This document shows positions 5,747-19,873 of a stretch of DNA of 64,000 nt, piece by piece. Made by a program: the position numbers and the translations under genes. Every line of letters begins with the position of its first letter. The stretch's first letter is position 1. The DNA is from a virus (taxonomy: Duplodnaviria > Heunggongvirae > Uroviricota > Caudoviricetes), in IMG/VR virus record IMGVR_UViG_3300033463_000003. One strand, written 5' to 3'. Under the pieces are notes generated by a model. That model searched no databases. It was not told the DNA's origin and saw only the letters and a list, made by a program, of their open reading frames with translations.

Positions 5747-5768
5747 TAATAAAGAGAGGTAAAAAGAA

Positions 5769-5996: not shown

Positions 5997-5997
5997 T

Positions 5998-6216: not shown

Positions 6217-6224
6217 AAAACTAT

Positions 6225-6252
6225 TTACTTTTCTTTTTATATGTGTTATAAT
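6225..6252 (+). promoter_or_regulatory. Early promoter (TTTACT, spacer, TGTGTTATAAT)
   Basis: Consensus match. Confidence 0.5.
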
Positions 6253-6280
6253 ATAATTAAGAAAAGAGAGGTAAAACAAA

Positions 6281-6517
6281 ATGACAGTTTATATTGTTAT
6301 TACAAATGACGACTGTGAAGTTAATGGCGAAGTTGAGGGCGTTTTTTCTACATACGAAAAAGCAAGAGAATGCTTTGAAGCCATTAAAGCAGATTGGCAA
6401 CATTGGGTTTACGGCTGTGAATATATTGATACAGAAGAAGATGACTACTACTGTGTCACTAATGAAGATGTTGGCGAATTCTGTGAAGTCAAACTTGAAG
6501 CTCACGACATTAAATAA
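6281..6517 (+). CDS. hypothetical acidic protein (78 aa)
   Basis: ORF with RBS (agagagg). Confidence 0.5.
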   Translation: MTVYIVITNDDCEVNGEVEGVFSTYEKARECFEAIKADWQHWVYGCEYIDTEEDDYYCVTNEDVGEFCEVKLEAHDIK

Positions 6518-6530
6518 AAAAGTTAAAATA

Positions 6531-6564
6531 AGGGGTTTACAAAAACCCCTTTTTATGTTATAAT
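6531..6564 (+). promoter_or_regulatory. Early terminator-promoter module (aggggTTTACAaaaacccctttt, then TGTTATAAT)
   Basis: Hairpin with a -35 in the loop. Confidence 0.55.
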
Positions 6565-6591
6565 TATTATATAAGAAAGAGGTAAAATTTT

Positions 6592-6840
6592 ATGACAAAT
6601 TATACACATATTAACGATTGTTGGGAAGCAATTAGAAAAGCAAAAACTATTGAAGAAGTAGAATCACTTTTTAATACTTTTCCAAGATGGTCTGGAAACT
6701 GGTTTGTTCAAATTGAAGAAAATTCATTTTATGAAAAAGTTTATGTTGTCTATAATACTTATTGGGACAATAATTTAGATCAAGAGGAAACTGAATGTGA
6801 AACTCTTGAAATTGAAGTGCCAGATTTTGAAGAAGAATAA
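6592..6840 (+). CDS. hypothetical protein (82 aa)
   Basis: ORF with RBS. Confidence 0.5.
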   Translation: MTNYTHINDCWEAIRKAKTIEEVESLFNTFPRWSGNWFVQIEENSFYEKVYVVYNTYWDNNLDQEETECETLEIEVPDFEEE

Positions 6841-6848
6841 AAGAAACT

Positions 6849-6878
6849 ATTTACAAATATCATAAAATATGATATAAT
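6849..6878 (+). promoter_or_regulatory. Early promoter (TTTACA, then TGATATAAT)
   Basis: Consensus match. Confidence 0.45.
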
Positions 6879-6910
6879 TATAATAGAGAAAAGATAATAG
6901 GAGGAAAATT

Positions 6911-7240
6911 ATGAAAAAGTACTTAATTCATTTTATGAGCATTGATATGCCATCAGTTGAAGACGATGGTTTGAGTGATGGTTCAAATTTCGGTATTTAT
7001 GAAAAAGTGTTTAACACAAGAGAAGAAGCCGAAAAAGGTTTAGAAGAACTTATGTTAAATGACAAAGCAGAATTAGAAGAATGCTATGGGTTCAATGAAG
7101 AGGAAGAAGATTGGGAACCTACCGTTTATATTGACATTGAAAATGGTAGATATGACCGTAAAGAATTAGTTGTTTATGATAAGTTTGACGCAACTGAAAT
7201 TAACACAACTATTTATGAAATCGTGGAGGTTGAGTTTTAA
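6911..7240 (+). CDS. hypothetical acidic protein (109 aa)
   Basis: ORF with an AGGAGG RBS. Confidence 0.5.
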   Translation: MKKYLIHFMSIDMPSVEDDGLSDGSNFGIYEKVFNTREEAEKGLEELMLNDKAELEECYGFNEEEEDWEPTVYIDIENGRYDRKELVVYDKFDATEINTTIYEIVEVEF

Positions 7241-7512
7241 TGTTTGAAGCAAATACAGAACAATTAGAATTCATCAACAAAAGATATAACGATATTAAAG
7301 AAGATATTTATATCGGAACTGACTACGTTGGCGAGGGAACTGAAATTGTAGACTTCTCTATTGATGACAATGGTAGAGTTACAATGAGTGTTACAGAGTA
7401 TTACTTAAATAATCAGTATGCTATGAGGGAAAGATACCACGAAAGACACCCAAGATTTAAGCCAACAGAGCTTGATTACTTACTTGGAAAGGTAGATACT
7501 CTAAATGCCTAA
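7240..7512 (+). CDS. hypothetical protein (90 aa)
   Basis: ORF whose start overlaps the upstream stop (TAATG). Confidence 0.5.
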   Translation: MFEANTEQLEFINKRYNDIKEDIYIGTDYVGEGTEIVDFSIDDNGRVTMSVTEYYLNNQYAMRERYHERHPRFKPTELDYLLGKVDTLNA

Positions 7513-7649
7513 TGAATTTGTAGAACTTCACAAAGATATTGGGTTAGCATACTTTGTAGATAAGAAAACAAAACAAATAACCTATGTAATGGATATTAAG
7601 AAATTAAATCTTGATAAAGTTAAAGCAGATGGTTTGGAGGTAAAAGTTT

Positions 7650-7868
7650 ATGAGCATTAAATTAAATGAAGTCGCATCAAGCACAATTAAAGCAGTTGGA
7701 TACGACTATGAACATAAGGACCTACACGTTCACTTTGTAAATGGTGGGGAATACTTATATGAAAATGTACCAGCCGAAGTTTATGCAAAACTATTGGAAG
7801 CAGACAGCAAAGGTAGATTCTTGCACGCTGAGGTAATTGGAAAATATAACTACGCAAAATTGAAATAG
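7650..7868 (+). CDS. KTSC-domain protein (72 aa)
   Basis: The pattern I.AVGYD.E...L.V.F.NGG.Y.Y.NVP..VY..L..A.SKGRF matches the KTSC (lysyl-tRNA-synthetase C-terminal-like) domain common in phages. Confidence 0.6.
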   Translation: MSIKLNEVASSTIKAVGYDYEHKDLHVHFVNGGEYLYENVPAEVYAKLLEADSKGRFLHAEVIGKYNYAKLK

Positions 7869-7888
7869 TCATATAATCCTCCTTATAA

Positions 7889-7915
7889 AAGTCCAGGCAT
7901 AAAGCCTGGCTTTTT
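7889..7915 (+). terminator. Rho-independent terminator (aagtccaggc ataa agcctggc tttttc)
   Basis: GC-rich 8-bp stem followed by a U-run. Confidence 0.6.
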
Positions 7916-7964
7916 CTTTTACAATTTTTTATACGAACGGTTCTGCGATCAGAATTTTGAAGTT

Positions 7965-7990
7965 AAATTTCACTGAGTTAGTGAAAAATA
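7965..7990. repeat. Palindromic motif AAATTTCACTgagttAGTGAAA (copy 1)
   Basis: Inverted repeat TCACT/AGTGA flanked by AAATTT. A family with at least 8 members, all in non-coding islands. Confidence 0.6.
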
Positions 7991-8090
7991 CTATAAATTT
8001 ACCCGTGACCGGTAAAAATTCGGATCGAGTAACGGTCACAGTAATGGTTACAGTAACTGTCACGGTTACAGATCATAGCTGTAGCCGTAG
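7990..8090. repeat. GC-rich non-coding segment carrying an inverted repeat GTGACCG...CGGTCAC and tandem GGT(C/T)ACAGTAA / TGTCACGGTTACAG repeats
   Basis: cccGTGACCGgtaaaaattcggatcgagtaaCGGTCACAGTAAtGGTTACAGTAActGTCACGGTTACAG. GTCACAG-like words recur at 13501 and 13640. Confidence 0.5.
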
Positions 8091-8091
8091 T

Positions 8092-8119
8092 AAATTTCAC
8101 TAGAATAGTGTAAAATTTA
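8092..8119. repeat. Palindromic motif AAATTTCACTagaatAGTGtAAAATTT (copy 2)
   Basis: Same family. Lies about 125 bp from copy 1. Confidence 0.55.
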
Positions 8120-8174
8120 TCTGGATCACAGACCGTACAAGAAGTCTATCTTCTAAAAATTATTAAATTAATAG

Positions 8175-8203
8175 TTTACAAATTTATTAAAAGATGTTAT
8201 AAT
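8175..8203 (+). promoter_or_regulatory. Early promoter (TTTACA, 14-nt spacer, TGTTATAAT)
   Basis: Consensus match. A second copy at 8260-8288 lies directly upstream of 8350. Confidence 0.5.
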
Positions 8204-8349
8204 ATTAATAGAGGAAAAGAATTAAATATAAAATTGTTAAAAAAATAATTTAAAAACTATTTACAATTAATTAAATTCGTGTTATAATATTAATGTAAGA
8301 AAGAGTGAACGAACAACACTCTATAATAAAACAGAAAGGAAAAAGGAAG

Positions 8350-8682
8350 ATGTCAAAATTCTATGGAATGGTTGTTGGCAATAGAGGCGCAGCAACACGT
8401 GGGGGAAGTGCTAACTCCGGATTCAAAGCAACAGCACAAAGTTGGGATGGCTCAGTCATCACAAGATTAGATTATGATAATGATAATAACCTCATTGTCA
8501 CAATTGAAATGGAAGAAGGCTCAAGAACTTACGGAGACGTAATGTTTAGAGGAACCTATGAAGAACTTAAAGAAGTTTTTGAAACTGCAAAGCTCATTAA
8601 AGAAAAAAGAGCAAGCGTTACAGTTCATCGTGAAAAATCAAATAAGATGAAACAGCTTGAAAGATGGGGATGGATTAAATAA
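8350..8682 (+). CDS. hypothetical protein, paralog family B (110 aa)
   Basis: Paralog of 5132-5461. ATG at 8350 follows aaaggaag. Confidence 0.6.
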   Translation: MSKFYGMVVGNRGAATRGGSANSGFKATAQSWDGSVITRLDYDNDNNLIVTIEMEEGSRTYGDVMFRGTYEELKEVFETAKLIKEKRASVTVHREKSNKMKQLERWGWIK

Positions 8683-8858
8683 TGAGTAGAACAGTTTATA
8701 TTGTTGTAAAAGATGGTATGATTGTAGATGCTTACGCCGACCATCTTACAGACCTTGTTATTCTTGACCTTGATACTAACTCAGAGGAAGAAGAAAAGAT
8801 CGTTCAAGCTGAGTTAAAGAAAATTCAAGAAAGCAACGATTGCATTGAAATTTATTAG
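8682..8858 (+). CDS. hypothetical small protein (58 aa)
   Basis: Start overlaps the upstream stop (TAATG). Below the ORF-track size cutoff. Open frame ends in TAG. Confidence 0.4.
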   Translation: MSRTVYIVVKDGMIVDAYADHLTDLVILDLDTNSEEEEKIVQAELKKIQESNDCIEIY

Positions 8859-8867
8859 GAGGCAAGT

Positions 8868-9056
8868 ATGGCTATAGTTATTATACTGATAATTGCATTC
8901 TGGTTCTTACCATTACCACTTGCATTACAAATTCTAATGACAGTCTTTGGCAGCTTACATTGCATATTCGCAATAATAAAAGCGTGTGTAAAAGCTTATA
9001 ATAAAACACATGCGCCAAAGAAAACTGGAATTTCAACATTAGATAGATTTCTTTAA
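8868..9056 (+). CDS. small membrane protein (62 aa)
   Basis: Hydrophobic N-terminal half (IVIILIIAFWFLPLPLALQILMTVFGSL). AGGAGG RBS. Confidence 0.5.
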   Translation: MAIVIILIIAFWFLPLPLALQILMTVFGSLHCIFAIIKACVKAYNKTHAPKKTGISTLDRFL

Positions 9057-9074
9057 AAAAATTATAAAAACCTA

Positions 9075-9102
9075 TTTACAAAGTAGGTTTTTTATGTTAT
9101 AA
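9075..9102 (+). promoter_or_regulatory. Early terminator-promoter module (cctatTTTACAaagtaggtttttt, then TGTTATAAT)
   Basis: Hairpin with a -35 in the loop. Confidence 0.55.
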
Positions 9103-9129
9103 TATTATTAGAAAAGAGGTAAGAAACTT

Positions 9130-9444
9130 ATGTTTGAAAATGAATTAAAAAATAAAATTGAATTTGTTAACGAAATTAGCACAGCTTTAACCATTGGGTG
9201 TAGAAATATTGACAGAGCAGAATATGTTATCTTCCAATCAGATAAAAACCCAGAGTGGTATACCGAGTTTGTGGTCATGCACTATAGAGGAGGTGCTATT
9301 CAAGCCAGATACTGCACAGGCAATAGTTGTGGAGCTATCTTTGAGGAAATTGCACAAATGTTATATACATCACAAAAATTCCCACAAGATACAAGGGACT
9401 ACTTAGAGTTTGTAAAAAGAAATTCTAAAATTTTGCAACTTTAG
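9130..9444 (+). CDS. hypothetical protein (104 aa)
   Basis: ORF with RBS. Confidence 0.5.
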   Translation: MFENELKNKIEFVNEISTALTIGCRNIDRAEYVIFQSDKNPEWYTEFVVMHYRGGAIQARYCTGNSCGAIFEEIAQMLYTSQKFPQDTRDYLEFVKRNSKILQL

Positions 9445-9447
9445 TAT

Positions 9448-9474
9448 TTACAAATAAAAAAATATGGTATAATA
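9448..9474 (+). promoter_or_regulatory. Early promoter (TTTACA, spacer, TGGTATAAT)
   Basis: Consensus match. Confidence 0.5.
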
Positions 9475-9498
9475 TATTATAGAGGTGGCAAATGAGCT

Positions 9499-9843
9499 AT
9501 GGAAAAAGAATTAGAATTTACAACCGCAGATCTTGATGATTTAAAAGAACTGGATGAGCTAGACCTTTCTGATGTTCCAAGTCAATATGAATATCAAGTT
9601 TGGTTATTAGGCTATGATGCCAACCAACTTGCTAATGATTATGAATATCAAATTGATTGGTTCGACTCATTTACAGAAGCTAAAAAGTGTTTTGATTTCT
9701 TTGCTGATGTTAAGAATTTAAAAGAAGTATTTACAATTCCAAATGATGTAAAGAATTTAGAACTTAGAATTGAATACGTAGTTACAAGCGATAACTATGA
9801 AGTCAATGAAGAAACATTAGAAACTACTACATTTGTTTTATAA
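9499..9843 (+). CDS. hypothetical acidic protein (114 aa)
   Basis: ORF with RBS (agaggtgg). Confidence 0.5.
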   Translation: MEKELEFTTADLDDLKELDELDLSDVPSQYEYQVWLLGYDANQLANDYEYQIDWFDSFTEAKKCFDFFADVKNLKEVFTIPNDVKNLELRIEYVVTSDNYEVNEETLETTTFVL

Positions 9844-9856
9844 GGAGCAAAAGGTT

Positions 9857-10168
9857 ATGAAAAAAACAAAGTATTTAAACAAAACATTTGACAACAATTG
9901 GACTTGCGTGCACGTTGGTGTTGCAAGCGTTAATGGTGCTTTTTACAAAGGCACAAGAAAAAGAACATTAAGACCTGGCCACAGAAGCTATTACTATCTT
10001 TTTGTCCGTGAAACCTCAGATGGTAAATTCGACAAGATGGTAAGATTAAACTGTGCCCAAGCAGCAAGTGTTTATAGCGGAAAGCAAACCGTTGAGTATT
10101 ATTCAGATAAAAAACAAAACAAAGTTAACCCAGATATTTTAAATAAGGTTGGATACTACTTTATTTAA
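9857..10168 (+). CDS. hypothetical basic protein (103 aa)
   Basis: ATG at 9857 preceded by aaggagcaaaagg. In frame with track ORF 9833-10168. Confidence 0.5.
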   Translation: MKKTKYLNKTFDNNWTCVHVGVASVNGAFYKGTRKRTLRPGHRSYYYLFVRETSDGKFDKMVRLNCAQAASVYSGKQTVEYYSDKKQNKVNPDILNKVGYYFI

Positions 10169-10203
10169 TCTACTGGAGGTAAGATTGAAAGGAGAAAGTT
10201 AAG

Positions 10204-11079
10204 ATGTTACAACAAGTTAAGAAAGATTGTATGTCAGCAGCTTCTAGACTTGGCGACTATCAAGCAATGAGTGTAGATACTTTAGCTGATGGATACTGCA
10301 AAGCTTTAGACGAACAAGATATGGATAATATGGATTCTTATCTTGGTGCTTTAATTTTACGCTTTTGGTATAGAATTAATAAACTTTTACAAGAAAATTT
10401 AAATTATAGCAATGATAGAACCGAATATTTTGACTGGTTAGTTGAGGCTATTAACTATGCTTGTAAATACAGAAAGTGGCAAGACCCAGCAAATAAGGTT
10501 AATGCACAACAATGTATTAATCAATGTATTGCTACAATCAGATTACAACATTATTATGTCAGCAATTTAAAGAAGAATGCTGGTGCTTATGGTAGCATGG
10601 TAAGCTTAGATGATAATGTTGCTGGCGACCCAGATGGCAAGCGCCTTCTTGATACTATTGAATCTGATGAAATTCCAGCAGATCAAGAAAGTCATGTTGT
10701 AGAATACTTGGTGCAATACTATATTAACAACAAGAAACTGGTAGAAGCTATCATCTTAGATAACATTGCGTTCCAAGATTCATATAAACTTACTAAAAAG
10801 GTAGTTAGAACCACAGATGAAGAAGGTAATCCAGTTAAATACCACGAATACTCTTCTAAATTCTGGCCATATAGAGTAGTTCAAGCTTTAAATGCACTTC
10901 CAGATGATTATTTAGAGTATTTTATGGAAAAATATGAAGATGTTGTTCCAGTTGAGTTCGAAGCAGCACTAAATAGCATCAAAAAAGCTAACAATCAGAA
11001 ACTCTATAAGTCAATTGAAAAAACATTGGCTGGCTTACGTGCAAATAAGGAACTTTTAGAGGAATTATTTTACGCATAG
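10204..11079 (+). CDS. hypothetical protein (291 aa). Largest early-module protein, function unassigned.
   Basis: ORF with a strong RBS (aaggagaaag). No catalytic motif recognised. Confidence 0.55.
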   Translation: MLQQVKKDCMSAASRLGDYQAMSVDTLADGYCKALDEQDMDNMDSYLGALILRFWYRINKLLQENLNYSNDRTEYFDWLVEAINYACKYRKWQDPANKVNAQQCINQCIATIRLQHYYVSNLKKNAGAYGSMVSLDDNVAGDPDGKRLLDTIESDEIPADQESHVVEYLVQYYINNKKLVEAIILDNIAFQDSYKLTKKVVRTTDEEGNPVKYHEYSSKFWPYRVVQALNALPDDYLEYFMEKYEDVVPVEFEAALNSIKKANNQKLYKSIEKTLAGLRANKELLEELFYA

Positions 11080-11162
11080 GCAAATTTAGAAAATTTCAAA
11101 CTAAATGTAGGTGTAAAAGCCTACATTTTATTGTATTATATAGTATAAGGTAGGTAAGCATT

Positions 11163-11879
11163 ATGTATTTAGATATATTGGCAGAAGATAGCTATGGAAA
11201 GTATAGCCGTAAGATTGCAGCTATAGCAGATTTGTATACTGCAGTGTATTTTTCTGAAATTTTAGATATTATAAAAAAGGTTGTTAAGAAAGGTACTTAT
11301 GATGAACTCGGTTATTTTATATTGGATCGAGAATACATCAAAAGTCGCACTACAATAGAAGAAGAGGATCAAATTAACTGTGATTCCGTTTTAGCAAGAG
11401 CAGGAATACTTGCCGTTGATGAAAAGAATTTAAATAAGATTAAAGTAGATTTAGAAAAAGCAGTGGCAATTATGATTGATGAGGATCCGAAGAAACTAGA
11501 AAAGCTCGCTAAAGAAATGAAGATTACACGTCAAGCTGCTGCGAAGAATAAACAATTATATATTATTGCTGGACTAAAGAAAGCAATAGTGGAACCTAAT
11601 GCGCAGATGTTAGATGCCTTACGTAATTGGGTTGAAGCAGTTTATGCCAACAAACGTTATCTAACAAAGCGTGCGATCGAAATTTTCCAAGAAACTATTA
11701 GAAAGTATAGTGAAAATTTAAATGTGCAGCTGAAGATTGTTGAGATCGCTACAATAAATGGTTGGACTGATGCTGCTTGGGCTATTAGTAATTTTGAAAG
11801 AGACTACGCTAACAGAACATCACTTTACAAACCAACATCTGAATCTAATGGTAAAACAAAAGCTGGAGTGGAATTCTAA
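11163..11879 (+). CDS. hypothetical protein (238 aa)
   Basis: ORF with RBS (aaggtagg). Confidence 0.55.
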   Translation: MYLDILAEDSYGKYSRKIAAIADLYTAVYFSEILDIIKKVVKKGTYDELGYFILDREYIKSRTTIEEEDQINCDSVLARAGILAVDEKNLNKIKVDLEKAVAIMIDEDPKKLEKLAKEMKITRQAAAKNKQLYIIAGLKKAIVEPNAQMLDALRNWVEAVYANKRYLTKRAIEIFQETIRKYSENLNVQLKIVEIATINGWTDAAWAISNFERDYANRTSLYKPTSESNGKTKAGVEF

Positions 11880-12199
11880 TGAGTGCAAAATATAAAATAA
11901 TAAATGATTTGCATGCGCATCGAAGGAATTTGGTAGGCTGGTTAGTGTTAGAACTCACTATACTAGGAATATTAATAGCTACAATTGCATTGATCTGCAC
12001 AGCCGACTCATCGTTGGGCAATAAAATTCTAATGTCAATACTTACTTCAGTGGGAATTGCAATTATGATCCGGATCGCAGCTGCATCGATCCGAAAGGTG
12101 TATGCTTTAAATATTACACTAAAAGAAATGAAAACTTTAACCGATGAGGAAATTAAATTCTTCTACATCGATACATCTGATAATAATGGGAGTGAATAG
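11879..12199 (+). CDS. membrane protein with two predicted TM helices (106 aa)
   Basis: Hydrophobic segments LVGWLVLELTILGILIATIALIC and ILMSILTSVGIAIMIRIAAASI. Start overlaps the upstream stop. Confidence 0.5.
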   Translation: MSAKYKIINDLHAHRRNLVGWLVLELTILGILIATIALICTADSSLGNKILMSILTSVGIAIMIRIAAASIRKVYALNITLKEMKTLTDEEIKFFYIDTSDNNGSE

Positions 12200-12200
12200 T

Positions 12201-12530
12201 ATGATAGTGAAAGTTTATAACAGAAAAGCTGATCATGATCCAACGCAGCTGCTAGAATCATTAACTAAGGAAACTGATTTAGTGCGAGTTCAAGCATCTG
12301 ATTATCATGAGCCACGTGAAGAAGATTTAGATTTCGAAAGTAGAATTTTATGTGGTGCAGAAACTATAATGTCTGATATTAAGAAGGTGTTGGGTATTGT
12401 AGACTTAGAAATATTTATGAAGCACCACATGTACGATCATGCTTTTGAAAGAGGCGATTTAGTGGAAGTAGATGGCAAACTATTTTTAAAATCTGAAGTT
12501 GGTTATATTCCAGCAGAAATAAAAAATTAA
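12201..12530 (+). CDS. hypothetical protein (109 aa)
   Basis: ATG at 12201 immediately follows the upstream stop. In frame with track ORF 12144-12530. Confidence 0.5.
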   Translation: MIVKVYNRKADHDPTQLLESLTKETDLVRVQASDYHEPREEDLDFESRILCGAETIMSDIKKVLGIVDLEIFMKHHMYDHAFERGDLVEVDGKLFLKSEVGYIPAEIKN

Positions 12531-12548
12531 AAAATTATAAAAAAACTA

Positions 12549-12578
12549 TTTACAAACAACAAAAAACATATTATAATA
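12549..12578 (+). promoter_or_regulatory. Early promoter (TTTACA, then TATTATAAT)
   Basis: Consensus match. Confidence 0.45.
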
Positions 12579-12634
12579 TATATGTAAGATGAATAAAGAA
12601 CTTACAAATATTAATTATAAGGAGCTTATCAAAA

Positions 12635-12916
12635 ATGCAAAAAACAGTTAATCAAGTCAAAAACGCCTACACATTCTATTTACAACCAAAGTTAGGTAAA
12701 ATCTATTCAATGTCAAAAAATAACAATGTTGAATTAGAAGCAATGAAAAGAATTGTTAAGAGTTATGTTAAAGAAGCTAGATACTCTTACCCAGTCAATC
12801 AACTTACCAAATTACAATGGTTCAAAAATACAGTTGATGAAATTGACTCAAAGAAACAATTATACTTCTTCTGTAGAAACTCTGTCCGTAGAGCACAAGC
12901 AACATTAGCAAGATAA
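12635..12916 (+). CDS. hypothetical basic protein (93 aa)
   Basis: ORF with an AAGGAG RBS. Confidence 0.5.
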   Translation: MQKTVNQVKNAYTFYLQPKLGKIYSMSKNNNVELEAMKRIVKSYVKEARYSYPVNQLTKLQWFKNTVDEIDSKKQLYFFCRNSVRRAQATLAR

Positions 12917-12930
12917 TTAAAAACAAAAAA

Positions 12931-12972
12931 GATTGTAAAAGTTGTTTACAATCTTTTTATTTTGCGTTATAA
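12931..12972 (+). promoter_or_regulatory. Early terminator-promoter module (gattgtaaaagttgTTTACAatcttttt, then GCGTTATAAT)
   Basis: 9-bp stem with a -35 in the distal arm, then a U-run. Confidence 0.55.
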
Positions 12973-12999
12973 TATATGTAGAAAAGAGGAATAATAAAT

Positions 13000-13443
13000 A
13001 TGTCAACAAGATGCAGAATTGGAATTAAAAACAAAGATAATACTATTACATCAATCTATTGCCACCACGATGGTTATCCAGATTGTGTGGGTGATACTCT
13101 GGTAAATCATTACACCAACGAAGATAAGATTAGGAAACTTATGGAACTTGGTGATATGAGTTCTTTAGGAAATGAACCTATTGATAATCCAAACGCTTGG
13201 GAAACACCTGGACTATGTGATGACTGGTTTGGAAAGTATAAAGAATTACACCCTGATGATATGTGTGATACTTATAAGTCAAGAGGTGAAGATGTTCCAG
13301 CAAGTATAGACAATAACTTAAAAGAATATCAAGAACGTACCGAGGACAGTTGGGGTGAATATGGTTATATCTTCCAAGATAATGACTGGTATGTGTTTGA
13401 ATACAAAGGCGAAGAATTAAAATTAGTTAAAGATTTATTATAA
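13000..13443 (+). CDS. hypothetical protein, paralog family A (147 aa)
   Basis: Paralog of 4463-4927. Confidence 0.6.
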   Translation: MSTRCRIGIKNKDNTITSIYCHHDGYPDCVGDTLVNHYTNEDKIRKLMELGDMSSLGNEPIDNPNAWETPGLCDDWFGKYKELHPDDMCDTYKSRGEDVPASIDNNLKEYQERTEDSWGEYGYIFQDNDWYVFEYKGEELKLVKDLL

Positions 13444-13469
13444 AGGGGTTTGTAAAAACCTCTTTTTTT
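13443..13469 (+). terminator. Rho-independent terminator (aaaggggtttgtaaaaacctcttttttt). A second hairpin with U-run follows at 13482-13528.
   Basis: Stem-loop followed by a U-run. Confidence 0.55.
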
Positions 13470-13525
13470 ATTTTATAAAAAACATCGGAACTAAAAATTT
13501 GGTCACAGATCTGTTCCGGATTTTT

Positions 13526-13550
13526 TATTTTCACTGAGCTTAGTGGAATT
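13526..13550. repeat. Palindromic motif TTTTCACTgagctTAGTGgAATTT (copy 3)
   Basis: Same family. Confidence 0.55.
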
Positions 13551-13650
13551 TGCCTGCATCGTACGGGATCTGCGCATGCGACTGCTGTGCGAATGCTTGT
13601 AAGTTTTTGTTAAATGCCTGCACAGCCTGTACATCGGTGTGACAGCTACA

Positions 13651-13676
13651 GCAAATTTCACTAGACACTAGTATAA
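13651..13676. repeat. Palindromic motif AAATTTCACTagacaCTAGTatAAAA (copy 4)
   Basis: Same family. About 125 bp from copy 3. GC-rich DNA lies between the two, with the duplicated word tgcctgca. Confidence 0.5.
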
Positions 13677-13733
13677 AAACTTATAGGATGTCACCCCCCC
13701 TGGATGTACATGAAGTTTATTCCAAAAACCTGT

Positions 13734-13761
13734 TTACATTTTTGTGCACATATGTTATAAT
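13734..13761 (+). promoter_or_regulatory. Early promoter (TTTACA, spacer, TGTTATAAT)
   Basis: Consensus match. Confidence 0.5.
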
Positions 13762-13792
13762 ATTAATAGGAAGAAAGAAGGTAATAAAAATT

Positions 13793-14044
13793 ATGAAGTA
13801 TGTAAATAATGGAAAAACTTATGATGTTGAAGAAGTTAATTTAATGGGTGCAATTATAAACGTTAATGGAACTTCTATCACAGACTTTCAAAAGATGTAC
13901 GAACTAACTGGCGATAAAATGCTTTATGGAAATGGTGGTTATACAGTATTTGTTGGGAGCGATGAAATCTACTATGACACATTCGAGCAAGCTTATGATT
14001 GTGCCATGAATAAACAAAAAGATACTTTTTGGTTGGAGGACTAA
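13793..14044 (+). CDS. hypothetical protein (83 aa)
   Basis: The ATG at 13793 lies downstream of the promoter. Track ORF 13688-14044 begins upstream of the promoter, so the internal ATG is preferred. Confidence 0.5.
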   Translation: MKYVNNGKTYDVEEVNLMGAIINVNGTSITDFQKMYELTGDKMLYGNGGYTVFVGSDEIYYDTFEQAYDCAMNKQKDTFWLED

Positions 14045-14048
14045 TTAT

Positions 14049-14300
14049 ATGAAACTAAATAAAAAACAAAAAGAGTTCTTATTTGAAAAGTACTATGTTA
14101 CTGCCAAAGTCTTAGATGCTTGTGTTGAAGATGGTTGGCAAAACTACTTTATTAAATGGTTTAATTGGGAATTAAAAACTGAATTAGACCAATATGGTTT
14201 TCATAGACTTTATTTAAAAGATAAAGATGATGGAACTATTGAATATACAATTGGTTTAAACTTCCATGACAATGATTTAGAATTGTTAAAAAGTTTATAA
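14049..14300 (+). CDS. hypothetical protein (83 aa)
   Basis: ORF closely coupled to the upstream gene. Confidence 0.5.
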   Translation: MKLNKKQKEFLFEKYYVTAKVLDACVEDGWQNYFIKWFNWELKTELDQYGFHRLYLKDKDDGTIEYTIGLNFHDNDLELLKSL

Positions 14301-14307
14301 AAGCTAT

Positions 14308-14335
14308 TTACAAATTAAAAAAGTTAGACTATAAT
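14308..14335 (+). promoter_or_regulatory. Early promoter (TTTACA, spacer, gacTATAAT)
   Basis: Consensus match. Confidence 0.45.
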
Positions 14336-14360
14336 ATAAATAGAAAGAAGGTAAGAAGGA

Positions 14361-14564
14361 ATGAATACACTTACAGTTAAAGAATTATTAGAATTATGTA
14401 AAGAACAAGTTGCATTAGGTAATGGTGATAAAAAGATACTATTATCAAATGACGACGAAGGTAATGGTTATCATGAATGCTTCTATCATTTTACAGAGGA
14501 TGTAGCAGGTAATGATATGTGGGGCGAAATTGAACACCCAGAAGAGTATATTATTTTAGGCTAA
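14361..14564 (+). CDS. hypothetical protein, paralog family C (67 aa)
   Basis: Paralog of 5461-5697. Confidence 0.55.
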   Translation: MNTLTVKELLELCKEQVALGNGDKKILLSNDDEGNGYHECFYHFTEDVAGNDMWGEIEHPEEYIILG

Positions 14565-14577
14565 GGAGGATTTTACA

Positions 14578-14742
14578 ATGGATGAAACATATACAATTAT
14601 CGTAAAACGCCAAGGCAAAAAAGATATGATTAGAAAGGGCTTAGATAAACTAAATGCTTCTATAATTCCGGCAGAATTACAATTAGCTTTTCCAAAAGCA
14701 TTTAAATCGGGTTATATGAGTGTAATAGTTTTAAAAGAATAA
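14578..14742 (+). CDS. hypothetical small protein (54 aa)
   Basis: AAGGAGG RBS 7 nt upstream. Below the track size cutoff. Confidence 0.4.
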   Translation: MDETYTIIVKRQGKKDMIRKGLDKLNASIIPAELQLAFPKAFKSGYMSVIVLKE

Positions 14743-14744
14743 TT

Positions 14745-15167
14745 ATGACGTACGAAGAAATACAATACAATAAAGAAAGAATAACAGTTAATAGAATAGT
14801 TATACTAGCTTTAGAGTACTTGCAAGAAAAGAAACATTTAAAACTAGATGTACAACAAATTGAGTCTATGCCAGGATACGGACCTATGGACCCACTATCT
14901 ACTTTTTACATTCTAACTATTCAATACACACCAGACCAACCTCCTATCGGTGTTGCAACTTGGGATGCCATTCGACATATTAGAGTAATGTTGTCTAGTA
15001 GTTATTTTGACCCACACCCAATGCCTGATGACTCTGATGTATTAAGAACTTTATATGGTAAAGTAGATAATACTAAGTATACTATATTAAGACTTGTTGA
15101 AAAAATTTATCAGGGCATTAAACCTTATATCACAAAACCTAAGTGGCAAGAATTTAGTTTTGATTAA
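14745..15167 (+). CDS. hypothetical protein (140 aa)
   Basis: ORF. Confidence 0.5.
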   Translation: MTYEEIQYNKERITVNRIVILALEYLQEKKHLKLDVQQIESMPGYGPMDPLSTFYILTIQYTPDQPPIGVATWDAIRHIRVMLSSSYFDPHPMPDDSDVLRTLYGKVDNTKYTILRLVEKIYQGIKPYITKPKWQEFSFD

Positions 15168-15175
15168 AAAAACTA

Positions 15176-15204
15176 TTTACATTATTTAATAGATATGTTA
15201 TAAT
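15176..15204 (+). promoter_or_regulatory. Early promoter (TTTACA, spacer, TGTTATAAT)
   Basis: Consensus match. Confidence 0.5.
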
Positions 15205-15228
15205 AATAATGTAAGGAAGGTAAGTAAT

Positions 15229-15552
15229 ATGAAATTAAGTAATTATCATCAAACATTAAAAGCAAGAGGTTATAAAGTTCGTGAGTTGAGCGAATATCAA
15301 GGAATTAATGTGTTTGAAAAAGAGCACAAATTTAATAAGATAGTTTGCACAGTCGTTAAAGATACTCATGGTAAGGGAGTTGAAATGACATTCAATATCT
15401 ACCCAACATTAACGACACCAAAAGATATGGTTGAATTTAAGGAGCAAGAGTTTGATAGAAGTTATCTTGTTAAAGAAGCGACTGTTATTCATCAAGCCTT
15501 TGAAGAATTAAAAACTCTTAAATCACCAAAGCACGTTCATTACTTTAATTAA
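15229..15552 (+). CDS. hypothetical protein (107 aa)
   Basis: ORF with an AAGGAAGG RBS. Confidence 0.5.
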   Translation: MKLSNYHQTLKARGYKVRELSEYQGINVFEKEHKFNKIVCTVVKDTHGKGVEMTFNIYPTLTTPKDMVEFKEQEFDRSYLVKEATVIHQAFEELKTLKSPKHVHYFN

Positions 15553-15566
15553 GGAGGTAAAGAAAG

Positions 15567-15713
15567 ATGAGCCAAAGTGTTGTTGCCGTTGAAATCGAAA
15601 ATGTTATGGGGTTCAAGCCAAATATGGAAGCAGTTGAAACTATAACTTGGTTTAAAAATAATAATCCTTATATGGAATTAAAACAAATTATTGAAGATTA
15701 TTATTTGTGATAA
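15567..15713 (+). CDS. hypothetical small protein (47-48 aa). The open frame ends in TGA followed immediately by TAA.
   Basis: AGGAGG RBS. The tandem TGA-TAA at 15708-15713 is the only in-frame TGA seen in the early module. Confidence 0.4.
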
Positions 15714-15736
15714 CGTTTAATTAAATAAACAAAAGG

Positions 15737-15774
15737 AAAGATAACGTTTAATATAACTGACGTTATCTTTTTTT
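15737..15774 (+). terminator. Rho-independent terminator (gataacgt...acgttatc plus a U7 run)
   Basis: 8-bp stem followed by a U-run. Confidence 0.6.
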
Positions 15775-15845
15775 ATTATTTACATTTTTGTTGGAATACA
15801 TTATAACGAAAACATGATTCAGATGATTGATCAGATTCATCAATT

Positions 15846-15869
15846 ATCACACTGAGCTAGTGAAATTTA
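15846..15869. repeat. Palindromic motif TCACACTgagCTAGTGAAATTT (copy 5)
   Basis: Same family. Sits in an island containing GATC palindromes (catgattcagatgattgatcagattcatc). Confidence 0.5.
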
Positions 15870-15892
15870 GAAAGCTGTAAATCCGATCACAT

Positions 15893-16222
15893 ATGTCAAC
15901 ACCAAACTTTTTTGACAAACTTCGTCATAATTTTTCCGGATCGACATCTGATTGGATTTATAACATCGTAGCTTTTAGTGAATTTAGTGAAGAATTATTC
16001 CGATCGTACGATGTTGTAACGATCTGTTGTTGTGCTAAATTACATGTACGAGGTTACAAATTTACGATGTATAGAATAATGTTAGTGAAAAAAGATTCAA
16101 CACCACAGCTAATTGAGGTCTGTGAATCTGAACTGGCGGCAGAAAAAGCACTGGAAAACTTTAAAGCTGCATTCCCAAAGCAGATCAGAACCGGTGAGTT
16201 TACAGTTTATATTGAAAAATAG
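15893..16222 (+). CDS. hypothetical protein (109 aa)
   Basis: Long ORF but no convincing RBS. Lies just after the repeat island. Confidence 0.4.
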   Translation: MSTPNFFDKLRHNFSGSTSDWIYNIVAFSEFSEELFRSYDVVTICCCAKLHVRGYKFTMYRIMLVKKDSTPQLIEVCESELAAEKALENFKAAFPKQIRTGEFTVYIEK

Positions 16223-16258
16223 CACAAGAAAAATTTGTGTTATTTTTTTATTTTCTTA

Positions 16259-16287
16259 TTTACAAATGTTTTAAATAATGTTATAAT
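16259..16287 (+). promoter_or_regulatory. Early promoter (TTTACA, spacer, TGTTATAAT)
   Basis: Consensus match. This is the last copy of the early class. Confidence 0.5.
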
Positions 16288-16311
16288 ATATATGTAAAGA
16301 GGAAAAGATAA

Positions 16312-16494
16312 ATGAACAAAGTATTAAGATTATTATTGGCAATTATATTAACACCTATTATTATGATTTGGAATGTAATAACAGTTGGTATTGTAGCAGT
16401 CATTGGGTTTATTGTTGGAGTTATTAAAGGTTCGGCAAACACAATTGATAGAGTTATAGATGGACCAAAAGAAACAATGGAGGTAAATGAATAA
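16312..16494 (+). CDS. small membrane protein (60 aa)
   Basis: Two hydrophobic helices. AGAGG RBS. Confidence 0.5.
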   Translation: MNKVLRLLLAIILTPIIMIWNVITVGIVAVIGFIVGVIKGSANTIDRVIDGPKETMEVNE

Positions 16495-16700
16495 TGAAAA
16501 GATGTTGTATTTGTGGTTGTATCATTGAAAGTCCTATGGGTGAAAACAATCCTGAAGGTGCTTGTTGGAAAACTGAAACTGGTGATATTGTAGAAGCAAC
16601 GTTTGAACCAACTGATGTATGTTGTAATGAATGTAATACCAGATATGTTATTCCAGGTAGAATATATAAATTAAATAAAGTTAAAAGAGGCGAAAAATAA
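16494..16700 (+). CDS. Cys-rich Zn-ribbon-like protein (68 aa)
   Basis: CCICGC near the N-terminus and CCNEC later. Start overlaps the upstream stop. Confidence 0.5.
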   Translation: MKRCCICGCIIESPMGENNPEGACWKTETGDIVEATFEPTDVCCNECNTRYVIPGRIYKLNKVKRGEK

Positions 16701-16783
16701 ATCGCTTCTTTTTTATTTACAAACACCAAAGAATATGTCATCATGATGATGTAGCTGCACATGATCAGGAATTTAAATATGCT

Positions 16784-16808
16784 TTTAGTGAAATTTAGTG
16801 GAAGCTTT
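16784..16808. repeat. Motif TTTTAGTGAAATTTAGTGG (copy 6, left end of the GATC-rich island)
   Basis: Same family. The word agctttca follows it here and also follows copy 7. Confidence 0.5.
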
Positions 16809-16880
16809 CAGATGAATTCAGAACTGTGATCATGCATTTGTGTTACCATGATCTGTGGAATGATCGATCCGATGCATAGT

Positions 16881-16908
16881 AAATTTCACTGAACTAGTAA
16901 AGCTTTCA
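16881..16908. repeat. Palindromic motif AAATTTCACTgaaCTAGTaAAG (copy 7, right end of the island)
   Basis: In inverted orientation relative to copy 6. The two copies bracket about 75 bp that contain six GATC sites. Confidence 0.5.
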
Positions 16909-17033
16909 TTATTATAAATCCTGATCACGGAACGTACATAGAAAAATAATCTTCTTTTTTTATTACACCAATATAAAATAAAATAGTCGTTGTTGTATAA
17001 TATAATAGATTTAAAAACGAGGTAGTATTGCTT

Positions 17034-17333
17034 ATGGAAAAGCATTATAAGATTTTACAGTTAAGAGACTTACAGACACCATACATCTGGCGCAGTTACA
17101 GCCGAGCATTGGATAACAACTTTTCACTAGAAGATTATGATGTTGTTTACGATGCGCACATTGATGTAGATGAATTTGAAGATGATGAACAAACACTAGA
17201 TAGACTTTGGGTGATGTTTAATATGGATCATCCAGGTGACTTTGAAGGTAGGTCTATGTCAGTGAGCGATATTATAGAGTTTGACGATGCTACATATTAC
17301 GTTGACTCTGTTGGTTTTAAAAAGATAAAGTAG
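17034..17333 (+). CDS. hypothetical acidic protein (99 aa)
   Basis: ATG at 17034 after an RBS (acgaggtag). Upstream lies ttgtTGTATAATAT. The track ORF started at a TTG codon at 17028. Confidence 0.5.
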   Translation: MEKHYKILQLRDLQTPYIWRSYSRALDNNFSLEDYDVVYDAHIDVDEFEDDEQTLDRLWVMFNMDHPGDFEGRSMSVSDIIEFDDATYYVDSVGFKKIK

Positions 17334-17344
17334 AGGTAGATGTT

Positions 17345-17674
17345 ATGATCATGATTATCAATAAAGTATATGACCAAGATTTAGTGAACTTGTTAGGATG
17401 TACAGACTTACCAACATTCATCAACAAGTCAACTGAAGAAATAGAAGAATACATTGACACACATGAATTACGCAGATCGAATCTAATTCCTGTTGTTTAT
17501 ACTTATAGTGGAAAGATGTTAGCAAGCGTTGATGCTACAGCAGTCGGTAAGGTACTTGGTCTGGATTATAAAATTAAAGAAGAAGATACACTAAGCACAG
17601 TTACAAATTTAAAAGCGGTAGCTTACATGGATCCAGATGTTGTGCCGATGAATAGTTTAGTAAGAATGATTTAA
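17345..17674 (+). CDS. hypothetical protein (109 aa)
   Basis: ORF. Confidence 0.5.
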   Translation: MIMIINKVYDQDLVNLLGCTDLPTFINKSTEEIEEYIDTHELRRSNLIPVVYTYSGKMLASVDATAVGKVLGLDYKIKEEDTLSTVTNLKAVAYMDPDVVPMNSLVRMI

Positions 17675-17704
17675 AAATATATTATGTAAAGGAGCGAAGA
17701 TAGA

Positions 17705-18040
17705 ATGTTAAGTTTAGAAAAAGAAAATAGTTGGTTAATTAATTTTTTAAAAGAGTCAGGATACAGAAGAATAAAGTCAGACGATTCAGATAGCATATTA
17801 TATTTTAAAAGCTTTAGTGATGAAACTCGTGTTGGCGGCGGCGTTATGGTCTACTCTAACATAAAAGAAAATAGAGTTAAAGTTATGGCAAAATATCCAG
17901 CTAACTTAAACTTCGAACTTGGATATACTACTGCAGAAGATGTCGAGAACTATTTACAGCTAGTTCGTACGATCAGCTGGGATATAAATGCAGAAGTATA
18001 TAGAGTAGTGAACAGTTGTAATAGAAGACTTGTGGAATAG
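17705..18040 (+). CDS. hypothetical protein (111 aa)
   Basis: ORF with an AAGGAG RBS. Confidence 0.5.
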   Translation: MLSLEKENSWLINFLKESGYRRIKSDDSDSILYFKSFSDETRVGGGVMVYSNIKENRVKVMAKYPANLNFELGYTTAEDVENYLQLVRTISWDINAEVYRVVNSCNRRLVE

Positions 18041-18065
18041 AATAAAGAATAAAATAAAAGAATAA

Positions 18066-18098
18066 AGAGCATATATAGAAATGTATATGTTCTTTTTT
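18066..18098 (+). terminator. Rho-independent terminator (agagcatatata gaaa tgtatatgttct tttttt)
   Basis: Stem-loop followed by a U-run. Confidence 0.55.
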
Positions 18099-18227
18099 AT
18101 TACCCGTTTTAAAGCATAGATGGGCATATATAAACACCTATGTCTATATTTTAGTAGTATATATAGGCTTTAAAAGTAGAAGATAGGCTATAGATCTGGC
18201 ATATATAAGCTAAAAAAGGCCTATACT

Positions 18228-18245
18228 GGACTAGTGAAAAAACCC
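18228..18245. repeat. Half-motif gGACTAGTGAAAAAA (copy 8)
   Basis: Partial member of the same family. Confidence 0.35.
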
Positions 18246-18420
18246 ATATTTTTGGAGCAGGGGGGTACTTTTCTACGCCTCACTGACTGAGCAAGAGAGA
18301 GCCCCTTTTTCATACGCGCCCGCGCCTGCACGCATGTATGTATACGTATAAAGTGAGTAGCAAAATGAATAGCAAGATTTTATGGCTTTTACTGTATAAT
18401 ATATTAAGGAGCTTTTATAT

Positions 18421-18630
18421 ATGCGATTAGAAGATGGAACTTTATATGTAAATAAAAAAGAATATGACTTAGTTAGAAGATGGAATTGGATAGCTAGTCC
18501 TTATAATGCAGGCTTATATCTATATCATCATTTAAAGCGTGAAGGTATTATTATGGAATGGAATGCAATTTTCTTTAGGGATATTTACATGGCGTTTAGA
18601 AGAAAGAAAGTTATTATAGAGGAAATTTAG
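18421..18630 (+). CDS. hypothetical protein (69 aa)
   Basis: ORF with an AAGGAG RBS. A TGTATAATAT promoter lies at about 18395. Confidence 0.5.
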   Translation: MRLEDGTLYVNKKEYDLVRRWNWIASPYNAGLYLYHHLKREGIIMEWNAIFFRDIYMAFRRKKVIIEEI

Positions 18631-19354: not shown

Positions 19355-19873
19355 ATGCCAAAAGTAGATTTAACGCTTAAAAATGCAAATGAATTAAATA
19401 TTGACTTATCTTCTTTTCATAGGCCAGATTATAAGTGGAAGAATTATTATATTGAGGATACAGAGCAAAACTTATTATTCTTAGTTCCTTCTTATCTTAA
19501 ATATGGTGTTATTGTTTTAGACTTAACTCTTGCCAAAGCTGCTTCATTTACTACTAAGGATGGGGCTGTTCATATGCTAAAAGATTATGCCTGGGGTATT
19601 TCTTCTAATGTAAGGCGAACTAATTATCCTAAAACGACCGTAACTGATAGAAGTATTAAATGTGGAAGAAGGACTATTTTACTTAATTCTATTCTTCTTG
19701 ACCATAATGAAATAATTGACCCAGAAGGAAGATATGCTATTACTCACTTAAATGGCAATACTTATGATAATCGTTTATGTAATCTTGCCTGGGGAAACTT
19801 AAAAGAAAATAATAATAAAAAATATACTGCTGGGATTTCTGAAGTTAAATATCCTTTCAAAACCTGGTGGTAG
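19355..19873 (+). CDS. HNH homing-endonuclease-like protein (172 aa)
   Basis: ITHLNGNTYDNRLCNLAWGNLKEN matches the HNH_3 motif (H-x-N-G-x-x-x-D-N-R-x-x-N-L). Confidence 0.55.
   Translation: MPKVDLTLKNANELNIDLSSFHRPDYKWKNYYIEDTEQNLLFLVPSYLKYGVIVLDLTLAKAASFTTKDGAVHMLKDYAWGISSNVRRTNYPKTTVTDRSIKCGRRTILLNSILLDHNEIIDPEGRYAITHLNGNTYDNRLCNLAWGNLKENNNKKYTAGISEVKYPFKTWW

Follow-up and report, generated by a model that had tools for sequence, protein, structure and literature searches.

A clade-specific family of non-coding early-region islands with candidate protein-binding anchors in large phages that appear to be TGA-recoded

The early gene region of a tailed phage (Caudoviricetes; IMG/VR record IMGVR_UViG_3300033463_000003), of which a stretch of 64,000 nucleotides was analyzed here (the window), contains five intergenic islands, I1 to I5, that carry short repeated sites, here called anchors. 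Judging from sequence comparison, the islands are a clade-specific and previously undescribed family of non-coding early-region modules in an uncultivated group of TGA-recoded large phages. The anchors are a solid clade-wide cis-element, and a protein is predicted, most likely, to bind them. We favour the reading, with a probability of about 0.4, that they are DNA site arrays for a sequence-specific protein that would act at a distance on the neighbouring early transcription units.

A preliminary description of this DNA had listed eight palindromic sites, often in pairs about 100-125 bp apart and confined to five GC-rich islands. We found all eight at or within 2-3 bases of the positions it gave (for example, 13653 for 13651), whereas their form had to be revised. 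Only 7968-7986 is a perfect TTTCACT-N5-AGTGAAA palindrome, the others having 1-3 mismatches and spacers of 5-7 bases, while the site at 16781 is a tandem doublet and that at 18221 a right half only. About 8 of 12 full sites have a spacer of 5 bases and the remainder one of 6-7, and many other sites are half-sites or tandem doublets. The exact 10-mer AAATTTCACT/AGTGAAATTT occurs six times in the window against about 0.6 copies expected from composition, and all six copies lie inside I1-I4, which make up about 1.6% of the window (2.06% for the five islands together). A motif frequency at background had been named as a result that would speak against the family; the exact 10-mer stands far above expectation, whereas looser matches in the window are at background, both for 10-mers with one mismatch (26 against 17.3 ± 4.2) and for palindromes when as many as 3 mismatches are allowed (39 against 33). 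The site family is real but small, and its strong signal is a core of 10-13 bp. Confinement to the islands holds for the exact 10-mers; I5 is a different element. The pairs are present, with measured distances of 127 bp in I1 and I2 and 97-100 bp in I4, and the agctttca said to follow both I4 copies was seen as a shared AGCTTTCA.

The window has 32% GC and is phage-like, with every gene on the plus strand. Between 4 and 19 kb lies an array of small open reading frames (ORFs), with near-consensus sigma70-type promoters (TTTACA-N17-(TG)TTATAAT, at least 15 copies) and intrinsic terminators between them, and every island of the window has a terminator ahead of it and an early promoter of this sigma70 type behind it. 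The GC richness ascribed to the islands applies to the cores between sites (0.40-0.53) and not to whole islands (0.31-0.41, against 0.32 for the window); ordinary intergenic spacers of the region have 0.15-0.25. That the islands are non-coding was borne out. Four of the five contain no gene in the JGI annotation; in I3, by exception, the called ORF 15893-16222 starts within the island without a Shine-Dalgarno sequence, and only its C-terminal part, from about 16067, resembles a real small protein. Because the phage appears to read TGA as tryptophan, the islands were re-checked under code 4 and with TAG read through, and no convincing ORF was found under these or under code 11. No terminator separates any island from the following gene, and no island is itself terminator-ended. 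Two further candidates were rejected as islands, the GC-rich block at 28.1-28.8 kb (a glycine-rich ORF) and the 329-bp gap at 5441-5769 (a small gene).

Relatives were sought through window proteins and DNA patterns, and their loci are denoted by L numbers. The 291-aa marker protein (10204-11079) has 1218 homologues, on contigs of up to 223 kb. Six marker-gene relatives were fetched, among which L127 alone (50% identity) bears islands, six in number, with the same motif and the same position between terminator and promoter; the other five (L125, L130, L136, L138 and L140) are island-free. The family of the 107-aa protein encoded at 15229-15552 comprises only 49 clusters, and all loci fetched through this protein bear islands, namely L153 (7), L155 (4), L154 (4) and L174 (5-6). 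These five island-bearing metagenomic relatives are about 46-50% identical to the window in a marker protein, where measured. A pattern scan of JGI metagenomes gave three loci, two of them useful (L133 and L135), and L135 carries a copy of island b of L127. The contigs L001-L004, which encode identical proteins, are 99.4-100% identical across the islands without insertion polymorphism and, being near-identical, add no comparative information. IMG/VR scans with two DNA patterns and two flanking proteins gave chance matches only and no relatives, searches of GenBank phages (megablast, tblastn and blastn) gave nothing beyond similarity to generic promoters, and no comparable family was found in the phage, Rfam and IMG/VR resources searched, the literature having been consulted for stop-codon recoding only. 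The largest contig encoding one of the phage's proteins is about 273 kb, and in size and coding the clade compares with the recoded clades of large phages that bioRxiv 10.1101/2021.08.26.457843 names.

The comparison with related phages that the preliminary description had proposed showed that the anchor motif is strongly conserved in island-bearing relatives while the surrounding island sequence diverges. Counterparts of I1 lie at the same gene junction in L127 (5345-5655), L155 (3515-3725) and L153 (1160-1400), and the stretch TAAATTTCACTAGA.TAGT of anchor I1B is identical in the L127 counterpart. The head box of I2, ATCGGAACT, is common to L127 11665-11920, L155 9050-9410, and L153 9355-9470 and 1160-1400. 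Islands are kept at the same junction across lineages that are about 50% identical in protein (L153f/L127d; I1/L127a/L155a/L153a), and the island subtypes, such as the ATCGGAACT head and the block after the KTSC-domain gene, recur in several genomes and therefore seem older than the lineage split. Homologues of the genes flanking I1 adjoin each other in L153 (2229-2337, about 108 bp apart) with no island, and in L154 the next gene follows the KTSC gene after 75 bp, again with no island. Presence or absence of islands varies only between relatives about 50% identical in protein, a junction pattern that shows ancient gain and loss and no recent mobility. I5 has no significant local similarity to I1-I4, and elements like it were found at L153 11870-12140 and L174 10940-11300. 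It is arranged in the order GGCATATATA / TATATAGGC repeats, TAGTGAAAAAACCC and about 100 bp of very GC-rich DNA, upstream of a conserved 69-aa gene (18421-18630), and is a separate conserved element that looks iteron-like or structured-RNA-like.

The sole element common to all sites is a directional yTAGTGr on the coding strand, with yTAGTGrAA as its fuller form in the island modules, and in the lineage of the window it is often extended to an imperfect palindrome of 19-25 bp, AAATTTCACT-N5-AGTGAAATTT. The core reads TAGTGAAATTT in the window, L127, L153 and L155, where an inverted partner, AAATTTCACT-N5, often precedes it. It reads CCTAGTGGAAA or CTTAGTGGAAA, without a palindromic partner, in L154, and GCTAATTAGTGGTTTT in L174, so that the motif runs by lineage through TAGTGAAATTT, CCTAGTGGAAA and TTAGTGGTTTT (three variants, also given as TAGTGAAATTT, TAGTGGAAA and TAGTGGTTTT) while the architecture is unchanged. 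A minus half-site always has a plus partner, and plus half-sites are often solitary; the palindromic partner is a lineage-specific addition to the core. The core of 10-13 bp is identical or nearly so in the window, L127, L153 and L155, the remainder of the islands being poorly alignable, and it is under clear purifying selection. The anchors, each itself a palindrome, are in inverted arrangement in I1, I2 and I4, and are direct repeats, not inverted, in I3, L127d and all L154 islands.

Across all lineages, successive plus-strand cores of an island are separated by 127, 128, 108-111, 94-99, 76-80, 89 or 121 bp, with outliers at 65 and 69 bp. The anchor spacing is therefore mostly 95-128 bp (range 65-128), and the units of L174 measure 115-118 bp. 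An island holds one to several anchors, at most four in most islands and seven in a long L153 gap with an I5-like element; tandem doublets lie 8-10 bp apart, the spacer of inverted pairs is mostly 5 bases long, and some sites stand alone. I1 and I2 share the identical 127-bp spacing with unrelated interiors, and inter-anchor DNA could not be aligned between islands. Compared with their own dinucleotide shuffles, the interiors are enriched in perfect loopless palindromes (z = 7.1 for 4-mers, 9.1 for 6-mers and 7.8 for 8-mers). Relative to the surrounding loci, the density is 22 times higher for TGTACA, 12 times for CAGCTG, 10 times for GTAC and 7 times for GATC, and all six copies of CTGGCCAG lie within islands. 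The interiors are constrained in length and composition, not in sequence. In six of the seven aligned islands, 80-115 bp separate the downstream site from the -35 element that follows it, the seventh (L127f) having no clear -35, and upstream sites lie about 200 bp from the -35 element. The features of the window are collected in Table 1.

Table 1. Islands, anchors and neighbouring transcription signals in the window
Feature	Position	Strand	Sequence or remark
Intrinsic terminator closing the upstream cassette (KTSC-domain gene 7650-7868)	7893-7917	+	Terminator scan and sequence
Island I1	7918-8172	+	Non-coding; 4 GATC sites; core 7990-8091, 0.42 GC
Anchor I1A	7965-7989	+	AAATTTCACTGAGTTAGTGAAAAAT; contains the perfect 7+7 palindrome 7968-7986
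Anchor I1B	8092-8116	+	AAATTTCACTAGAATAGTGTAAAAT; 127 bp past I1A, 83 bp ahead of the -35 element
Sigma70-type early promoter	8175-8203	+	TTTACA-N17-TATAAT with TG extension; second copy 8260-8288
Intrinsic terminator behind gene 13000-13443	13442-13465	+	Terminator scan
Island I2	13473-13730	+	Core 13552-13652, 0.53 GC; head box ATCGGAACT
Anchor I2A	13526-13551	+	TATTTTCACTGAGCTTAGTGGAATTT; spacer of 6 bases
Anchor I2B	13653-13679	+	AAATTTCACTAGACACTAGTATAAAAA; 127 bp past I2A, 80 bp ahead of the -35 element
Sigma70-type early promoter of the cassette after I2	13733-13761	+	
Head promoter just upstream of I3	15779-15807	+	TTTACA-N17-TATAAC; kept in L153 near 10590
Island I3	15808-16066	+	5 GATC sites; overlapped by called ORF 15893-16222
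Anchor in I3	15845-15868	+	TATCACACTGAGCTAGTGAAATTT
Tandem half-site doublet in I3	15971-15992	+	GCTTTTAGTGAATTTAGTGAAG; same type as the 16781 doublet
Intrinsic terminator before I4	16683-16712	+	Terminator scan
Head promoter-like element	16716-16744	+	TTTACA-N17-CATCAT with TG extension
Island I4	16745-16990	+	6 GATC sites
Tandem half-site doublet in I4, not a palindrome	16781-16810	+	GCTTTTAGTGAAATTTAGTGGAAGCTTTCA
Anchor in I4	16881-16908	+	AAATTTCACTGAACTAGTAAAGCTTTCA
Island I5, a different element	18100-18385	+	GGCATATATA / TATATAGGC repeats, one right half-site, GC-rich tail
Right half-site alone, in I5	18221-18239	+	CTATACTGGACTAGTGAAA; AAAACCC follows

While the anatomy, conservation and clade distribution described above were observed directly, protein binding, looping and a regulatory outcome are what we infer from them. 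In the proposed mechanism, each protein subunit would recognize one half-site, which would account for the occurrence of single, inverted and tandem arrangements alike. The protein would bridge or wrap the segments of about 100-128 bp between anchors, and the bound complex would act remotely on the flanking early terminators and promoters, for example by shut-off, timing or insulation of early transcription. The flexible use of inverted, tandem and single sites fits protein recognition of the half-site, the enrichment of perfect and loopless palindromes is a property of double-stranded DNA and not of RNA hairpins, and the drift of the motif by lineage under a constant architecture is as expected for a site that co-evolves with its binding protein. 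The array reading is therefore favoured by the selected core within freely drifting DNA, the tolerance of arrangement, the constraint on spacing and interiors, the loopless palindromes and the lineage drift. Most probably the anchors are of the phage operator or iteron array kind, with an unusual architecture. Operator pairs with possible looping were one of three readings offered in the preliminary description, beside origin or partition iterons and the ends of MITE-like insertions (miniature inverted-repeat transposable elements), and this reading is the best supported of the three, by the conservation of the core, the constraint on spacing and the downstream site 80-115 bp from the -35 element.

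Several points weigh against protein-bound DNA arrays, and some of them correct the operator reading as it was first put. No site overlaps a promoter, and islands are found at only a minority of early promoters. The core is always on the coding strand, with a palindromic partner that is never solitary, which a purely symmetric DNA site does not predict, and in L154 the directional core is not palindromic at all. The spacings are not clearly in helical-repeat phase, and the promoter-like elements at the head of about one-quarter to one-third of the islands suggest that islands may be transcribed. No DNA-binding protein was identified. Of about 30 early proteins compared with Pfam and PHROG, none had a DNA-binding domain, whether helix-turn-helix or ribbon-helix-helix. 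The family of the 15229-15552 protein co-occurs with the islands (5 of 5 island-bearing and 0 of 5 island-free loci), but this test is only partly independent because that very protein had led to three of the five island-bearing loci. Its confident AlphaFold model (pLDDT 88.5) had no significant match in the PDB (best E = 0.14). Its divergence does not track the motif variants, the protein being 74% identical in L154 with a different motif and 48% identical in L127 with the same motif, and it was therefore dropped as a candidate for the specificity determinant.

A more specific proposal, which we consider unlikely, is a module of directional anchors about one persistence length apart (95-128 bp) with palindrome-rich flexible DNA between them. 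It would form a wrapped or looped nucleoprotein complex, or else encode a protein-independent antitermination RNA, and would insulate, time or topologically manage the dense, strong and co-directional early promoters of TGA-recoded jumbo phages. If such a module existed, it would be without a described counterpart.

The main rival of the DNA-array reading is a role at the level of RNA, which seems somewhat improbable to us. Transcription would start at weak head promoters or reach the islands by terminator read-through and would yield long 5' leaders or non-coding RNAs, and the anchor yUAGUGrAA would be a signal for protein or RNA binding or for processing, for instance in a put- or nut-like antitermination that would let RNA polymerase pass the many downstream terminators. 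The coding-strand orientation of the core at every site in six genomes agrees with this, as does the lack of a terminator between island and next gene. About one-quarter to one-third of the islands, a share taken from a promoter comparison plus inspection, open with a promoter-like element, TTTAC(A/T)-N17-(TG)n-TAnnAT, with a weakened -10 (TATCAT, TACGAT, CATCAT or TATAAC) and in some cases conserved between genomes (15779 and 16716 in the window, L153 11554, L154 10480 and L174 9906); most islands, however, lie directly behind a strong terminator without a promoter of their own. As for structure, the anchor often forms a hairpin of 5-7 bp, and at the KTSC-gene junction four islands keep a CACTA/TAGTG stem while the loops vary (GAA, GAG, GCG and GAAG), but downstream-type sites retain a conserved C.A mismatch in the stem. 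I1 folds as one long imperfect hairpin (z = -4.7), whereas I2, I3 and I4 fold no better than shuffles (z = -0.9, -1.95 and +0.1). The GC-rich cores within an AT-rich genome also speak for this reading. RNAalifold on 22 anchor-to-anchor units gave 0 pairs and no covariation, a weak negative given the poor alignment. No Rfam match beyond chance was found in the islands (gathering threshold and E <= 5), the tRNA search was negative, and an enrichment in loopless perfect palindromes is not a signature of RNA structure.

It is improbable that the islands are a selfish repeat, that is, MITE-like or BOX/Correia-like elements, formerly or still mobile, with the palindromes as their ends and tolerated at terminator/promoter junctions. 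Anchors are inverted in I1, I2, I4 and L127c, the whole of I1 is a long imperfect hairpin, homologous islands have different neighbour genes (I2 and L127c), and islands are missing from the junction of the I1 flanking genes in L153 and after the KTSC gene in L154. The copies in one genome, however, share only the motif of 10-25 bp (at most 16 bp shared), which argues against recent spread, and no target-site duplication or flanking direct repeat was visible in I1, I2 and I4. No copy lies at an arbitrary position, inside a gene or away from a terminator/promoter junction, and islands contain tandem arrays of several anchors. Near-identical contigs show no insertion polymorphism, and the islands are kept at the same junctions in distant lineages with a core that is under clear purifying selection. 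The suggestion that the sites are MITE ends is therefore not upheld.

Replication-origin iterons or a partition centromere, with arrays bound by an initiator or a ParB-type protein, are still less probable. In favour of this reading, the sites recur, are palindromic in part and cluster with GATC, and a nearby conserved gene (11163-11879) has a weak PHROG match to an O-like replication initiator (E = 0.005). The half-site also appears to match the box A heptamer of P1 parS, ATTTCAC, and sopC of F is a tandem repeat array with embedded palindromes. What argues against this idea, likewise raised in the preliminary description, is the number of islands, 4-7 separate ones per 15-20 kb and not one locus. 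Moreover, the scanned proteins had no detectable ParB or initiator domain, the GC skew has no switch across the region, and with a spacing of about 100 bp the sites are unlike both known iterons, at about 20 bp, and sopC, at 43 bp.

Recombination sites analogous to integron attC, which would shuffle early gene cassettes, are a shade less probable again. The islands resemble such sites in their imperfect palindromes, conserved ends, variable centre of 65-128 bp, single orientation and placement at cassette boundaries, and cassette content differs between genomes at island boundaries (the L153 island at 8202-8423 corresponds to 3.1 kb of cassettes in the window). However, islands are found at only some cassette boundaries, no island has a GTTRRRY core, and no recombinase or integrase was seen in the window, while every promoter/terminator junction here (promoter family D1) is a plausible site of homologous recombination anyway. 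The promoter modules in question (4073-16296; family D1/D4, at least 15 copies) are highly similar, with the form TTTACA-N17-TGTTATAAT, and in several of them the -35 element lies within the loop of the preceding terminator hairpin. They resemble the promoter-early stem-loop (PeSL) cassettes of T4-type phages, and cassette shuffling probably acts on them.

A mimic of a host CRISPR repeat, with a solitary repeat unit serving as an RNA anti-CRISPR or a mini-array, is very improbable and largely refuted: the presence in early non-coding DNA of a palindromic repeat, about 20-25 nt long, that forms a hairpin, and the superficial likeness of the motif to the Cas12a repeat (AAUUUCUACU...GUAGAU), are outweighed by a scan of 185,579 species, with one genome each (two copies with exact stems and a loop of 5 bases, at a period of 55-85 bp), that gave 18 loci with no array and no plausible host, and by an anchor period of 95-128 bp and degenerate copies unlike those of CRISPR arrays. 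Two other identities were tried and rejected. Promoters of a phage RNA polymerase were considered for a resemblance of CACTAGAG to the T7/SP6 type and of the 5-bp stem with its 3-base loop to the hairpin promoters of N4, but they do not fit in spacing or loops, and the window showed no gene for such a polymerase. None of the known Firmicute regulator boxes (CodY, Rex, CIRCE, cre, Fnr and LexA) appears to fit the half-site arrangement.

With regard to the genetic code, NrdD (1657-3603) has four in-frame TGA codons at conserved positions, and TGA is read as a sense codon, probably for tryptophan. The same reading applies at 3552-4085, 23363-25912, 27710-28825, 40956-48233 and elsewhere, many late or structural ORFs containing 1-6 in-frame TGA codons, and it is also seen in NrdG of L138. 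Hardly any in-frame TGA occurs in the early cassettes at 4-19 kb; ORF lists made with the standard code split the TGA-containing genes. The ORF at 27710-28825, with six in-frame TGA codons, is glycine-rich, presumably encodes a fibre or structural protein and forms, with GGAGGG repeats, the most GC-rich block of the window (0.62); 41251-41450 is a further GC-rich spot.

Several features stand beside the islands in this phage and its relatives. The island-free relatives carry units made of a promoter, 200-300 nt of non-coding DNA and a terminator (L125 12205-12620; L130 7510-7948 and 20180-20497; L138 11844-12273 and 17381-17735; L140 6583-7020 and 18127-18374). These units hold several CCTCC or CACCTCCTTTC motifs, which equal the 3' end of 16S rRNA (anti-Shine-Dalgarno), and are candidate small RNAs. 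A CCTCCTT(TCTA) box (7878-7886 in the window) lies just ahead of the terminator before I1 and occurs in the window, L127 and L155. Compared with L001 and L003, the window has a recombination breakpoint at 6511-6775, the sequences being identical downstream of 6775, differing at 38 positions between 6511 and 6775, and unrelated upstream, where L001 has NrdD/NrdG genes. Genes resembling HNH homing endonucleases lie at 19355-19873 in the window and at L127 7208-8035 (with repeated helix-turn-helix modules); L135, collinear with L127 in other respects, does not have the latter, so that a mobile insertion seems likely. Hairpins of the form TTCCACT-N5-AGTGGAA, in pairs at a distance of about 85 bp and with several pairs per contig, were seen in WOR-3 and Saccharibacteria metagenome-assembled genomes (L156, L157, L162, L165, L169, L172 and L173); they are an uncharacterised repeat family of unrelated bacteria, superficially like the L154 variant of the motif.

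To our knowledge, sequence is the sole source of information on large uncultivated phages of gut and rumen with a reassigned TGA, and we know of no account of how they control early expression. The anchor family gives a concrete, conserved and testable cis-element with lineage variants in the region of host takeover. Finding its binding partner would expose a regulator of the early programme, and the family could serve as a sequence marker of the clade. Should DNA wrapping or RNA antitermination prove true, phage biology would gain a new regulatory architecture; a conventional operator array would be a useful, ordinary annotation.

Several known systems can be compared with the islands. The operators of dimeric repressors in lambda, P22 and TP901-1 differ in that the sites described here lie off the -35 and -10 elements and no cognate DNA-binding protein was found among the roughly 30 early proteins. 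Like lambda nut and HK022 put, the islands are directional, hairpin-containing elements along co-directional early operons punctuated by terminators; unlike them, they have no conserved RNA fold, boxA-like element or N-like protein that we could identify, and many lie downstream of terminators, not of promoters. Like the T4-type PeSL cassettes, the islands would be regulatory units that recur where small early genes adjoin, within a highly variable region, and the window also has at least 15 compact early promoter modules, several with a terminator hairpin. The islands differ in adding 200-350 bp between terminator and promoter, which happens only at a minority of boundaries, and in having an anchor motif of their own. 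Correia, BOX, RUP and REP/BIME repeats are also short non-coding intergenic repeats with inverted termini, some of them long hairpins near terminators or promoters, and REP/BIME repeats bind gyrase or IHF. The islands differ from such MITE-like repeats in having no near-identical copies, target-site duplication or recent mobility, and in being limited to one phage clade and to terminator/promoter junctions.

The nearest analogues appear to be the dispersed C1 operators of phage P1 and the KorB/ParB operators. The OB operators of RK2 KorB and the ParB-parS sites are palindromes of 13-16 bp, some of them 80-190 bp or more from the promoters they repress. The anchors resemble them as palindromic sites distant from promoters and present in many copies per replicon, and differ in the directional core, which is non-palindromic in one lineage, in the arrays of 95-128 bp period and in the lack of a detectable ParB or KorB domain in the window. 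P1 has many C1 operators, each asymmetric and 17 bp long, at dispersed positions; some of them pair up as incomplete palindromes, and the DNA between operators forms loops. The anchors are comparable in being a multi-copy family spread over a large phage genome, with single or inverted-pair sites and what would be one asymmetric half-site per subunit. They are distinct in that P1 operators overlap or abut promoters, whereas the anchors lie 80-250 bp upstream, in dedicated islands with a periodicity of about 100 bp and palindrome-rich spacers.

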